Below, piece by piece: positions 1 to 55,594 of a stretch of DNA of 64,000 nucleotides (the stretch's first letter is position 1; the number at the start of each line of letters is the position of its first letter). Origin of the DNA: an uncultured euryarchaeote (lineage in GTDB: Archaea > Thermoplasmatota > Poseidoniia > Poseidoniales > Poseidoniaceae); contig CALBRH010000063.1 of the NCBI GenBank assembly GCA_937899865.1, forward strand, positions 64,001 to 128,000, read 5' to 3'. The notes under the pieces were generated by a model. It saw nothing but the letters and a program-made list of their open reading frames with translations. It did no database searches and was not told where the DNA came from. The position numbers and the translations under genes were made by a program.

Positions 1-2175
1 AGTCAATTGTTAACCAAAGCTCGTGCTCTTCAATCTGAAATTAGTGCGATTAATACGGATGGTCCAAAATCTCTTGCTGAAGTGAAGAAGTTAGTAGATT
101 CTATGGCTTCAAAGATCGATGACGCTTTAGCAAATATCGATGAGGTTAGAGATTCAGAGTCTGAGATCTCCAATCTTAATGAAAGAGTAAAAGCGCTTGA
201 AAGAGTAGCTCCTCTTGGCATACCATTGGACTTAATGGCCGGTTTTGAGGGTTTAGAATTATTTATTGCTGAGACATCTAAGGCTTCTAAAGCATATTCA
301 GAATTTTCCGACATTTTGTCCAACATTGAACTTCAGGTGGCAAAGGGAGTTATTGCTGTTGCTTGCAGGCCATCAGATAGCGCTGCTATTCAAATCGGAT
401 TAAGTGCACTAGGTGCAAAACCAATTCAAATTCCATCTGGTGAAGGTTCTGCTGAAACAATGATCGCAGAGGCCAAATCAAATATTGAATCTCTTGAATC
501 AAGTATTGACTCATCAAATAAAGCAATCAATCAATGGAGCAAGGAATACGGAAGAGATTTAGTGATACTTCTTGAACATCTAGAAAGGGAAGAATCAATT
601 TACACTGCCCCAACACTTTTTGCAGTTAGTAACAAAGCATTTGTTCTGGATGGATGGGTGCCGAGTTCAGATAAAAGCAAAGTGGAAAGTGCACTTGGAA
701 AAGTCGCATCACATATTTCTATAGAACAGCATGTTGACGACCACCATCATCATGATGACCATGATGATTCAAGCCATGTAAAAGAAGTTCCAGAAGAACT
801 TCAAATGCTTTCAGACTATCTTGAAATGAAGAATATTACTGTATTCGAATTTTTCAAGAGCATGGACTTAGATGAGTCTGGTGAACTGGAATTTGCAGAG
901 ATTGAGGCAGCGATGAAAAAAGCAGACATCCCTGATATGCCGCCGCTAAATATGGCTAGATTTTTAGCCGCTATCGATTTGAATCGAGACGGGAAAATAA
1001 ACCTCCCAGAGCTTGATTTAGCGATTGGTGCAATCCGTAATGGATCTTATACTACAGCGGAACACCATGATGACGCACAACCCCCAATCAAATTTGAAAA
1101 TGGAGAATTTTCAGAACCATTCGAACTGTTAGTAGATTTAGTTGGAAGGCCGAAATATGGAACCTTTGATCCGACACTATTGATGACTTTTACATTCCCA
1201 ATATTCTACGGTATGATTCTAGGAGACTGGGGTTACGGTCTAGTTCTATGTGCTATTGCAGCATACTTTGGAAGTAAACCATTCGCAGTAGATCCACTGG
1301 CTCAAAATGGACTTACAATTTTGAGATGGATGGGGATTTGGTGTATAATATGGGGGCTAATATTCGCAGAAGGTTTTGGTTTCGTTTGGGACGATACGGG
1401 TCAAATGGGCAATTCTTCACCATTCGATTTCATCTATGATTGGACCTATGCTAATATTCATGTTCCAGGTACATTAGCAGACTTACTAGCAATGGGAGGA
1501 TTACACGTGCCTTTCCATAGAGCAACTCCTGGAGGCGGCCTTCAAGAGTATGTAGTGTTATCAGTTTATGTTGGAATATTACATATTTTTGTTGGACTAT
1601 TTATCGGATTATACACCGTCTGGAAGGCACATGGTGCAGCAGCAGCATTCTTCGAAAAAGGCTCATGGTTACTGATTATGACTGGCGGTACAATGCAAGC
1701 AAGAAACATGGTTATGGGATTCAATGAATTATTTGAATTCCAAATTTGGACACTATTGATTGCTGTTGGATTGGTTTCTCTTGTTATTGGATTGGCAGTC
1801 TACGAGAAGTTTGGATGGGTTGGAGGCCTTGTAATGGGTCCAATTGAAATATTTGGCCTATTGGCAAATACTCTCTCATATCTAAGAATAATGGGCGTAG
1901 GTGTTGCAGGCGTTAAAATCGCAGAGATCTCTATCAATATGGGTTGGGAAAAAATCGGTCCAGCAATGGACGCAGGCGATATTTTCGGCTTAATTCTAGG
2001 AATCGTACTATTCGTATTGGTGCAACTTTTCGCTATTGCATTAGGTATTTTATCACCATCTATTCACGCCATCCGTCTACACTTTGTAGAATGGATGGGT
2101 AAATTCTACGACGGAAGTGGCAAGGCATTTGCCCCACTTGGCGGTCGAACCCTTCACGTGGAGGGTAAATCATAG
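1..2175 (+). CDS. atpI: A-type (A1Ao) ATP synthase subunit I/a, 5'-truncated by window edge; carries His-rich + EF-hand pair insertion
   Basis: Frame open from base 1. Motifs AFVLDGWVP, PFELLVDLVGRPKYGTFDPT, FYGMILGDWGYG, NTLSYLRI, HAIRLHFVEWMGKFYDGSG. First gene of the atp cluster. Confidence 0.96.
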   Translation, partial: SQLLTKARALQSEISAINTDGPKSLAEVKKLVDSMASKIDDALANIDEVRDSESEISNLNERVKALERVAPLGIPLDLMAGFEGLELFIAETSKASKAYSEFSDILSNIELQVAKGVIAVACRPSDSAAIQIGLSALGAKPIQIPSGEGSAETMIAEAKSNIESLESSIDSSNKAINQWSKEYGRDLVILLEHLEREESIYTAPTLFAVSNKAFVLDGWVPSSDKSKVESALGKVASHISIEQHVDDHHHHDDHDDSSHVKEVPEELQMLSDYLEMKNITVFEFFKSMDLDESGELEFAEIEAAMKKADIPDMPPLNMARFLAAIDLNRDGKINLPELDLAIGAIRNGSYTTAEHHDDAQPPIKFENGEFSEPFELLVDLVGRPKYGTFDPTLLMTFTFPIFYGMILGDWGYGLVLCAIAAYFGSKPFAVDPLAQNGLTILRWMGIWCIIWGLIFAEGFGFVWDDTGQMGNSSPFDFIYDWTYANIHVPGTLADLLAMGGLHVPFHRATPGGGLQEYVVLSVYVGILHIFVGLFIGLYTVWKAHGAAAAFFEKGSWLLIMTGGTMQARNMVMGFNELFEFQIWTLLIAVGLVSLVIGLAVYEKFGWVGGLVMGPIEIFGLLANTLSYLRIMGVGVAGVKIAEISINMGWEKIGPAMDAGDIFGLILGIVLFVLVQLFAIALGILSPSIHAIRLHFVEWMGKFYDGSGKAFAPLGGRTLHVEGKS

Positions 2176-2206
2176 TCCATCGGACACAAAAAAGGAGGTA
2201 GCAAAA

Positions 2207-52842: not shown

Positions 52843-55594
52843 AGAAGAAAATAATATTGAAGAAGACGGCCAAGCAACAGTTCAAGGGAACTTGCTTAAT
52901 CAACCATTAAATGAGGAATTGAAGACATCATACATCAATTATGCAATGTCGGTAATTATTGGTAGAGCTCTTCCAGATGCTAGAGATGGCCTAAAACCAG
53001 TCCATCGAAGAGTTTTGTATGGTATGCATGAAGGAGGCCATACATCTGATAAGAAGTTTAGCAAATCAGCTCGTTCTGTTGGTGAAGTTATGGGTAAATA
53101 TCACCCACATGGTGACCAATCAATCTACGATACCATGGTAAGAATGGCTCAGGATTTCTCCCTTCGTTATCCTTTGGTAGATGGACAGGGTAATTTTGGC
53201 TCAATCGACGGCGATCCTCCTGCAGCAATGCGATATACAGAAAGTAGATTAGACAAAATATCAAAACACATGCTAGAGGATATTGATAAGAAAACAGTAG
53301 ATTTCCAAGCCAATTTCGATGATTCGGAACAAGAACCAACAGTACTACCATCTAGATTGCCAAATTTAATTCTCAATGGTAGCGATGGTATTGCAGTAGG
53401 AATGGCCACAAAAATACCCCCTCACAATCTAACCGAGGTGGCTGGTGCAGTAAATCTTCACGTTAATACCATTATTGAGGAAGGAGTAGATTCAGATACA
53501 ATGCCAGATATTTCTATAGAAGAGTATATGGAGCACGTAAAAGGTCCTGATTTCCCAACTGGGGCAGGAATTCACGGAGTAGATGGAATCTATGACATGT
53601 ATTCTGGTGGTAAGGGCAGATTCCATGTTAGGTCAAAATGTGATGTATTAGATGATTCAAACGGTAAGCGTATTATCATCCATGAGATTCCATATCAAGT
53701 CAAGAAGGCAGATATGTTAGTCCATATTGCTGAGTTGGTAACCAAAGGCACTGTTATCGGAATAAGAGATATTCGTGATGAATCCTCTAAGGAAGGAATT
53801 AGGGTTGTTATTGAAGTAAAGAATAATGCAGATCCAAATGCAGTACTAAATCAGTTGTACAAATCCAGTAGATTGCAAGAATCTTACTCTGCAAATATGA
53901 TGGGGATACTTGATGGCAGACCAGTTCTGTTAACGTTGCCAGTAATGCTTCACACTTATGTCAAACATAGAGAATCGGTAATTGAACGAAGAGCCAAATT
54001 CGAATTAGAGAAAGCAGAATCAAGAGCTCATATTTTGGAAGGTCTTGTCAAAGCACAAGATAGAATTGATGATGTTATTGAGGTAGGTAAAGGTAGCGCA
54101 TCTAGAGAACAATTTGAGAGCGTGCTAAAGGGAGAAGAAACATTCCCAGGAATCGCGCCTTTTGATTTTACTGAACCTCAAGCAAAGGCAATTGCTGAAA
54201 GACGACTTTACCAATTAAGTAGATTAGATGTTGAAAAGGTTCAAAATGAATATTCAGAATTACAGGAAAAAATAGCAGATTTGAACGATATAATTTCCTC
54301 ACGACTTCGAAGGCTAACCATACTATTGGATGAACTAAATGAAATGGTTGAAAAGCATGGTGATGCGAGAAGATCATATATCGACCCTATGCCGCTATCA
54401 ATGGATAGAGAAGATCTAATTGAGGAACGTGCTATTGCTATTACTTTGAGTGAAGATAATTACATTAGACATCTTCCAGTTGAAGCATTTAGAGTGCAAA
54501 ACAGAGGCGGTAAAGGTCTCAAGGGTGTTACTACCAAAGAAGAAGACACACCTCAATTAATTATCACTTGTTTTAGTAAAGACAGATTACTAATCTTTAC
54601 CGATCAAGGTAGAGTATATGGATTGAAAGCTTGGGAGACACCTCTCGGTAGTAGATTGTCTAGAGGTGGCCATATCCGAAATCTACTAGAGAGTCTTAGA
54701 GAGGATGAAAACATAGTATCTATCTTGCCTGTTAGCAAAGATTTGTTAGAGAATCCAGCAGGTAACTACTTGTTGTTTGCTACCAAAAAAGGTCTAATTA
54801 AGAAAACTAAACTTGAGGAATATGTTAGAATTAATCGTAATGGAAAGTATGCCTTGAGATTCAAACTCGATGGTGATACATTGGTAAATGTTAGGTCTGG
54901 AACAGATATGTCAGATATTGTGATGATTTCAAGTACAGGATTTGCTAGTAGGTTTGCCTGTTCAGCAATTAGAGCATCAGGTAGAGTTTCAGGTGGGGTA
55001 TATGGAATTAAAACAGGAGATAGAAAAGGTGCAGATGGCGGACATGTAATTGCAATGATAGCCACGCATAATCCTGAAACCAACATCTTGACAGTTACTA
55101 AGAATGGAATGGCAAAGCGTAGTAGGCTTGGTACTGCAGAAAGATTACCGGTTTTGAATGAGGACGGTTCACATAAACTTCACAAAGAAACGAATGAGCC
55201 ATTGTTCAAAACAGATGGTTATAGAAAAACTAGACCAGGTGCAAAAGGTGCTTTCACAATGAATATCGATTCTGATGACGAAATAATTTCTGCAAAGCAT
55301 ATACCAGATCTTGGAGATAATTTATTCATATTAACCAAGAAAGGTATGATGATAAGAATCGTTGCAGGACAAACCAAAGATACCAAGACTAAGAAATCTA
55401 AAGGTACAAGAATTATGGAATTGAGAAACAAAGCAAGAGATGGCTTTACAGATGAAATAATTTTCACCGCAAGATTGCCAGCAGAATTACTTGAAGAAGA
55501 TCAATTCGACGAAATTGATGCAGATGGTGATGGAGTAATTAGTAGAGAAGAATTTGAGGCTGCTCAACAATCTAATTCATTTGAGGAAGAATGA
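52832..55594 (+). CDS. gyrA: DNA gyrase subunit A with EF-hand in C-terminal acidic tail
   Basis: [29 protein letters not shown] (catalytic Tyr), GyrA-box QNRGGKG. TTG start after GGAGGTG. Confidence 0.98.

Follow-up and report, generated by a model that had tools for sequence, protein, structure and literature searches.

Predicted EF-hand modules in the ATP synthase stator, a complex I subunit and the DNA gyrase tail of Poseidoniales archaea

Direct control of energy conversion by Ca2+ is regarded as a eukaryotic, mitochondrial trait. In plants, an EF-hand insert makes the NAD(P)H dehydrogenase NDB1 Ca2+-dependent (PMC4587368), and in Drosophila Ca2+-calmodulin binds to the N-terminal domain of the V-ATPase subunit a1 (V100; PMC3987144). 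For DNA gyrase, Ca2+ affects the Mycobacterium tuberculosis enzyme via a GyrA site (residues 504-516 of the linker; PMC3479174) and the acidic GyrA tail controls DNA wrapping in Escherichia coli (PMC11626157). Here, we describe EF-hand loops in AtpI, the stator subunit I of the A-type ATP synthase, in the tail of GyrA and in a soluble protein of 369 residues, all encoded in one stretch of 64,000 nucleotides (positions 64001-128000 of contig C63 of genome G000, hereafter the window) from an uncultured archaeon of the order Poseidoniales. The parent genome measures 2.0 Mb and is 91% complete, and named database matches assign it to Candidatus Poseidoniaceae (Marine Group IIa). Members of this order rank among the most abundant archaea in surface seawater. 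We argue that the loops probably belong to separate Ca2+-responsive or docking modules, each local to its own host protein, within a wider expansion of EF-hands in this order. Families of Ca-binding domains specific to the marine groups IIa and IIb (MGIIa and MGIIb) have been mentioned without detail (PMC9258230). For Poseidoniales, the literature searched does not mention EF-hands in any of the three places (AtpI, NuoL and the GyrA tail), and the papers and structures searched describe none in the stator of a rotary ATP synthase, an antiporter subunit of complex I or the tail of a GyrA.

An EF-hand pair in the hinge of AtpI

Loops were defined by the PROSITE pattern PS00018 and the domains were checked with the Pfam EF-hand models. 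The initial annotation of the window had placed five loops in three unrelated proteins, and this is borne out: the pattern finds two loops in AtpI, two in the 369-residue protein and one in the GyrA tail (coordinates are given in Table 1), and Pfam EF-hand models match all three proteins, with EF-hand_1, EF-hand_5, EF-hand_6 and EF-hand_7 scoring at or near the gathering score. All five loops have oxygen ligands at positions 1, 3, 5 and 12, glycine at position 6 and a hydrophobic residue at position 8, and alignments of homologues show the ligand positions to be invariant. The number of matches is far beyond chance: the 50 open reading frames (ORFs) of the window hold six, against 0.17 +/- 0.39 in 500 whole-protein shuffles (maximum 2). 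Shuffling in blocks of 40 residues, which keeps the local acidity, reached the observed count in none of 2000 trials for AtpI, none of 2000 for the 369-residue protein and 13 of 2000 for GyrA. No export signal was found in any of the three proteins. The claim that these canonical, conserved loops lie on the cytoplasmic side of housekeeping enzymes also stands, as the N-terminal domain of AtpI and GyrA are cytoplasmic.

The AtpI protein has 782 residues at full length, with its start 174 nucleotides upstream of the window (L069:128). Its assignment to the subunit I/a family (PF01496) is confirmed by profile, fold and operon: atpI is the first gene of a complete A-type operon with the order I-K-E-C-A-B-D, and the AlphaFold model, with a mean predicted local distance difference test (pLDDT) score of 78, is matched by Foldseek to chain N of the Thermus thermophilus V/A-ATPase (6qum_N) with an E value of 1e-25 and a template-modelling score (TMt) of 0.75. 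Arg687 and Arg750 in the membrane domain are invariant. Approximately 90 residues cleanly split a linker rich in His and Asp, a linker that AtpI proteins lacking the insert also have according to the alignment. On its C-terminal side the split linker adjoins a conserved PP..F.N...PFEL junction leading into the membrane domain. In the model, residues 323-404 form four helices, and each loop has a short beta bridge at its positions 7-9 (residues 353-355 and 390-392); the modelled cassette thus bears the signature of an EF-hand pair, slung between two disordered His-rich tethers. Among the proteins of the window, the pairing of two hands through beta bridges is supported by a model for this cassette only. 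Since the N-terminal domain is cytoplasmic and no membrane helix intervenes, the AtpI pair is also cytoplasmic.

Both loops are kept in 120 of the 120 closest AtpI homologues, down to 59% identity, with Asp at position 1, Asp or Asn at position 3, Ser or Asp at position 5, Gly at position 6 and Glu at position 12 conserved. Between members of genus g1, nonsynonymous divergence in the cassette (pN 0.07-0.10) is set against a saturated synonymous divergence (pS 0.71-0.95), and the amino-acid identity of the cassette (86-90%) is higher than that of the AtpI N-terminal domain (77-81%). These comparisons point to strong purifying selection on the cassette.

The insert has a narrow distribution. We surveyed AtpI in 30 genomes spanning 19 genera of Poseidoniales; the families concerned are labelled f1, f2 and f3, with f1 taken as Poseidoniaceae (MGIIa) and f3 as Thalassarchaeaceae (MGIIb) from the names of database matches. 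Only genus g1 aligns from end to end (5/5 genomes). AtpI of the other genera is about 100 residues shorter and aligns as residues 1-256 plus 354-724, and the insert is absent from AtpI of all sampled genera of f1, f2 and f3 other than g1. The lengths of the frames and a check of one odd case concur that the insert is a trait of g1. In a search of 1.8 billion proteins clustered at 50% identity, the loops occur only in the cluster of the query itself among the best 150 listed representatives. The His/Asp-rich linker, as the alignment indicates, is ancestral in Poseidoniales and predates the cassette, and by itself it might serve as a hinge that responds to metals or pH.

The same cassette in a polytopic membrane protein and in NuoL

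Searching the order with the AtpI insert returned two to five look-alikes per genome of f1 and three hosts: AtpI (in g1), the complex I subunit NuoL and a protein with up to 12 predicted transmembrane (TM) helices, hereafter the 12-TM protein. In total, 25 cassettes align without gaps over 97 columns, including conserved flanks (..ELxMLxDYL.. and ..DIxLxRIR), and all Ca2+-ligand positions are canonical in every copy compared. A tree of the cassettes did not resolve their branching order; the copies from AtpI and from NuoL fall within those that the 12-TM protein has in f1. The AtpI cassettes do not come out as one clade because 97 columns are too few, and a single origin for them is compatible with this tree.

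In NuoL, the cassette is found in 15/15 genomes of genus g2 and, with 51% identity, in the f3 genera g15 and g19. NuoL lacks it in all other Poseidoniales searched, the present genome included, and none of the sampled genomes carries it in both AtpI and NuoL. The g2 host, of 847-871 residues, is identified as NuoL by PF00361 (E values of 3e-61 to 1e-64 across the hosts) and PF00662, and phmmer aligns the NuoL hosts to solved NdhF, Nqo12 and NuoL chains (6hum_F, 4he8_L and 3rko_L) on both sides of the insert; this assignment holds for the hosts in g2, g15 and g19. The insert always lies between the helix with the motif HAxxK..SG..IH and that with MGGL..GFxSK, a position that we take, from the topology of complex I, to be the TM11-TM12 loop on the cytoplasmic side. 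Runs of His and Asp flank the insert in NuoL as well.

The 12-TM protein has 650-740 residues and 10-12 predicted membrane helices, with the cassette at the C-terminal end (f1 and f2). Behind the cassette comes either a SAP domain or a short tail that closes with -EEE. Its cassette has no His-rich flanks and is equally conserved. The protein is present in 34/34 other Poseidoniales genomes sampled and in 0/126 others of the phylum. The f3 frames mostly span 527-568 residues (one has 614), approximately the length of the membrane-domain model, which suggests from the lengths that the cassette is absent there. No Pfam family matches the protein at E <= 1 (13 members searched) and no PDB sequence matches at E <= 10; its gene is surrounded by unrelated housekeeping genes, none of them respiratory. 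We considered and rejected the heme-copper oxidase subunit I family (PF00115): hhalign against the COX1 of the same genome gave a probability of 0.2%, the family alignment has no invariant His and the genome has a separate, canonical COX1. The likeness to COX1 and to a SAP cluster comes from a language-model look-alike score and is a lead only. At the edge of a contig, G000:C31:2-1087 matches the family a second time, weakly (E values of 5e-18 and 5e-12), and may be a diverged paralogue.

The GyrA tail, the 369-residue protein and the wider EF-hand complement

The 920-residue GyrA is DNA gyrase subunit A by its core, its active-site tyrosine motif (AAMRYTE), its beta-pinwheel C-terminal domain with a GyrA-box-like ..NRGGKG.. 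motif and the gyrB gene immediately upstream. Within its acidic C-terminal tail there is a canonical helix-loop-helix EF-hand, a feature of some Poseidoniales genera: in a family-wide search the loop was found in 7/7 genomes of g1, 7/7 of g4, 3/7 of g3 and 1/2 of g110. Apparent matches in the tails of g2 and g7 cross stop codons and hence are not real. The loop is retained across tails that are 53-91% identical. Compared by eye, with no alignment of the two, the GyrA loop lacks the sequence signature of the cassette. A complex prediction with two copies of the tail (residues 861-920) gave a score of 0.04, which speaks neither for nor against pairing. We also looked for a Ca2+ site of the mycobacterial type; the tail holds the one strict PS00018 loop of this GyrA, and the linker that joins the N-terminal to the C-terminal domain has none.

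The GyrA tail, loop included, still ends in -EEE. This ending or a close variant (-DEE or -EDE) closes the acidic tail in every Poseidoniales genus sampled, with the exception of one g6 genome. Across the whole genome, 32 of the 1216 ORFs of at least 200 residues end in Glu-Glu-Glu, against about 0.6 expected; in the window such endings are found in GyrA (55583-55591) and at 20148-20156 and 40869-40877.

Four parts make up the 369-residue protein: a helical N-terminal part, the EF-hand pair, an acidic linker that varies and a beta-rich C-terminal domain that is conserved. Syntenic orthologues were found in 15/15 genomes of f1 and 0/2 of f2, and one partial match to the EF-hand region was found among 13 genomes of f3. 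In most f1 genomes with both genes on one contig, the orthologue lies about 20-24 kb from gyrA. The structure model, built from 33 homologues, has a mean pLDDT of 43 and is too poor to judge the fold. The protein is a probable Ca2+ binder. The three loci are unrelated and form no operon; that they lie close together, within 64 kb, is due to conserved synteny.

A higher EF-hand count in these archaea than in their relatives had been proposed as a check on the initial annotation, and it is seen. Counting PF13499 matches at E <= 1e-4, all sampled genomes of g1 have 9-12, and f1 as a whole has 3-12 (21/21 genomes with a match); f3 has 0-7 (12/13 genomes). In the rest of the phylum (Thermoplasmatota outside the order), 9/126 genomes have 1-4 matches, and 1/14 control genomes has a match. 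By this count, EF-hand pair domains are strongly enriched in Poseidoniales, and the expansion is strongest in f1. Some of the other EF-hand proteins of the genome have domains of a cytoplasmic type and others are clearly secreted, bearing a signal peptide, PGF-CTERM or arrays of DxDxDG. An extracellular reading, of the dockerin or TSP3 kind, does fit many other DxDxDG proteins of the same genome; for the three proteins of the window it was rejected on three grounds: they have no signal peptide, GyrA and the N-terminal domain of AtpI are cytoplasmic, and SAP tails occur on some 12-TM proteins. Two of the proteins with domains of a cytoplasmic type are L005 (G000:C51:79534-81738), which combines a double zinc ribbon with seven EF-hand loops, and L007 (G000:C5:10305-11609), which has an EF-hand pair between Tudor/Agenet-like domains, a eukaryote-like combination.

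Two candidates in the window were set aside. The sixth PS00018 match lies in gyrB (nucleotides 51076-51114), within the GHKL ATPase fold; no Pfam EF-hand model matches there and we take it to be a false positive of the pattern. A small membrane protein near the end of the window had been credited with two half-loops. The motifs exist (..DGVITEEE.. and ..DGEITEEE..), but no EF-hand model matches them, and the only family resemblance is to TerB (PF05099; E value of 0.0023 and 18.6 bits, below the 24.4-bit cut-off). Directly after the ATP synthase operon there is an ORF of 857 residues (8350-10923, + strand) with no Pfam family at E <= 0.001.

Table 1. Coordinates of the features discussed. Positions are those of the window unless a locus or contig is named.
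Feature	Position	Strand	Basis
atpI, A-type ATP synthase stator subunit I	1..2175	+	Pfam PF01496, E 3e-32
N-side His/Asp-rich tether of the AtpI hinge	733..777	+	Alignment; pLDDT <50 for residues 307-319
EF-hand pair cassette, ~90 residues (AtpI residues ~318-407)	778..1047	+	PS00018 x2; Pfam EF-hand_1/5/7
AtpI loops 1 and 2	865-900 and 976-1011	+	PS00018
C-side His/Asp tether (..EHHDD..)	1057..1080	+	Alignment; pLDDT <50 for residues 408-415
Remainder of the ATP synthase operon (K/c, E, C, A, B, D)	2117..8284	+	PF00137, PF01991, PF01992, PF00006 x2, PF01813
369-residue soluble EF-hand protein, Poseidoniaceae-specific	31695..32804	-	PS00018, Pfam
EF-hand pair loops of the 369-residue protein	32412-32447 and 32301-32336	-	PS00018
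gyrB	50893..52842	+	Pfam PF00204, PF00986, PF01751, PF02518
gyrA	52832..55594	+	PF00521, E 1.5e-148; PF03989, E 4e-32
Single EF-hand loop in the acidic GyrA tail (residues 896-907)	55517..55552	+	PS00018; EF-hand_5 above cut-off
Small membrane protein with two DGxITEEE repeats	59332..60000	-	No EF-hand match; weak TerB
NuoL with cassette (G006, g2)	L082:1685-4252	-	
NuoL with cassette (G015)	L096:1553-4225	+	
NuoL with cassette (G061)	L095:534-3170	+	
12-TM protein	L001 (G000:C13:9235-11433)		
12-TM protein, orthologues	L073-L081, L084-L090		

Local modules, rival readings and known systems

The EF-hand features would have arisen in at least three separate events. A cassette of about 90 residues would have been copied, when one genus had its ancestor, into the pre-existing His-rich hinge that connects the cytoplasmic stator arm of AtpI to the proton-channel domain; the likely source of the cassette would be the C-terminal module of the 12-TM protein, which is specific to Poseidoniales. 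NuoL of other genera has this cassette instead, in the presumed TM11-TM12 loop. In GyrA a single EF-hand would have been built into the acidic C-terminal tail, and the 369-residue protein is a family-specific soluble protein with an EF-hand pair. Each module would bind Ca2+ and act locally on its own host. In AtpI and NuoL, the cassette may behave as a tethered calmodulin-like lobe, with Ca2+-dependent opening changing the geometry of the hinge; alternatively, the lobe may dock in a Ca2+-dependent manner onto a neighbouring subunit or a shared partner. In GyrA, Ca2+-dependent folding of the tail may alter an autoinhibitory contact with the C-terminal domain, a switch that the results on the acidic tail in E. 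coli and on the Ca2+ site in M. tuberculosis make plausible by analogy. The separate origins, the nested distributions, the lack of a shared component and the ordinary transporters argue for independent modules of this kind, and we consider that reading probable. Several points weigh against it. Binding of Ca2+ and any effect on activity are predictions, and the organism is uncultured. Unusually, Pro occupies position 11 in loop 2 of the cassette. A lone EF-hand normally needs a partner, and the GyrA hand is lone. Given the tree of the cassettes, the donor is a candidate and the number of insertion events provisional, and the cytoplasmic side of the NuoL insert is a presumption from the published topology of complex I.

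The same sharing of a cassette can be explained without a Ca2+ response. The module could be a constitutive docking or assembly domain, either loaded with Ca2+ or independent of it, that ties its hosts together or to one common partner, without a role in signalling; the GyrA loop would only stiffen the tail. Many EF-hand domains are structural, and a cassette with conserved flanks on three different membrane proteins is what would be expected of a domain with a shared partner. AtpI and NuoL carry it in different genera, and never both in one sampled genome. Pure docking would not need the Ca2+-ligand positions to be canonical in every copy, as they are, and the partner is hypothetical. We therefore regard docking as the most serious of the alternatives and still as unlikely. 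Of a similarly doubtful standing, a shade lower, is a reading in which cytoplasmic Ca2+ serves as a second messenger, directly gating the proton-coupled converters via the AtpI or NuoL cassette and tuning gyrase via the GyrA tail.

The initial annotation went further and proposed one integrated Ca2+ signalling layer in which influx co-ordinates ATP synthesis and DNA supercoiling. Several observations speak for it. The three hosts are cytoplasmic and conserved and occur together in g1; the fusions are not singletons, given the AtpI homologues, the four genera with the GyrA loop and the family-wide 369-residue protein; EF-hands are enriched in the lineage; and the cassette recurs on a second energy complex. 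Seawater contains about 10 mM Ca2+ and imposes a steep inward gradient. Recruitment onto energy machinery is repeated, with the same cassette in AtpI and in NuoL. The GyrA hand is single and, compared by eye, lacks the cassette signature. The distributions are nested and not matched, with the AtpI insert in one genus, the GyrA loop in four and the 369-residue protein family-wide, so that the co-occurrence in this genome amounts only to nesting. The genes do not share an operon, and we found no dedicated Ca2+ channel, kinase or shared component. The genome does contain two CaCA genes and three P-type ATPases; genes of these two kinds are present in 11 and 14 of the 14 control genomes, respectively, and hence indicate nothing specific. 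With separate origins, unequal distributions and no shared component, a single co-ordinating system is improbable.

A quite different role would give function to the tether: the His/Asp-rich hinge would bind Zn, Ni or Cu or sense pH, with the EF-hand pair as an accessory extension. The His-rich linker of AtpI is older than the cassette and His/Asp runs lie beside the NuoL insert as well, but the cassette of the 12-TM protein is just as well conserved with no such flanks and the cassette is more constrained than the tethers, leaving this role very improbable. Finally, neutral, tolerated insertions or functionless chance acidic motifs are scarcely credible: the sites of the inserts (hinge, loop and tail) are permissive and the proteome is moderately acidic (14.6% Asp plus Glu), but the excess over the shuffles, the loops kept in every AtpI homologue compared, a pN far below pS and the retention of the GyrA loop across diverged tails all speak against them.

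Under the reading of separate, local modules, the most interesting part of these findings is that one cassette alternates between AtpI and NuoL, which makes a clean natural experiment in domain insertion. If the modules bind Ca2+ at physiological levels, they would be small, expressible handles on whether prokaryotes signal with intracellular Ca2+, and also on how the mechanics of the stator hinge affect rotary ATPases and on the setting of supercoiling by the GyrA tail. Should the second-messenger reading be true, it would provide a prokaryotic counterpart to the Ca2+ control of oxidative phosphorylation.

Compared with known systems, the external type II NAD(P)H dehydrogenases of plants and fungi (NDB1 of potato and Arabidopsis) share with AtpI and NuoL an EF-hand inserted into an enzyme of the respiratory chain, and they would be the nearest functional analogue of the two cassettes. 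The NDB1 host is a eukaryotic organellar enzyme, a single-subunit, non-pumping flavoenzyme that responds to Ca2+, whereas the hosts here are an archaeal rotary stator subunit and, in sister genera, an antiporter-like subunit of complex I, with a putative Ca2+ response. V100 resembles AtpI in that an EF-hand type of Ca2+ sensor meets the cytoplasmic N-terminal domain of a homologous rotary ATPase subunit (a/I). The sensor of V100 is calmodulin, which is not part of the same chain, and SNARE assembly rather than pump activity is read out, while AtpI has the EF-hand pair within its own chain, at the hinge that joins its N-terminal and C-terminal domains. The canonical A/V-ATPase subunit I/a (T. 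thermophilus chain N; 6QUM and 6R0Z) has the same fold, operon and conserved membrane domain, with no EF-hand at the hinge in the solved structures compared or in the listed cluster representatives outside that of the query. For gyrase, the M. tuberculosis GyrA has a non-canonical loop in the linker between its N- and C-terminal domains, in contrast to the canonical EF-hand in the C-terminal tail described here, and E. coli GyrA has an acidic tail that controls wrapping but contains no EF-hand. The cassette itself resembles a lobe of calmodulin, the PF13499 domain and bacterial EF-hand proteins such as calerythrin in having two 12-residue loops about 37 residues apart, four helices and a beta bridge; unlike calmodulin and calerythrin, which are free sensors, it is an internal cassette carried on flexible tethers within polytopic membrane proteins.

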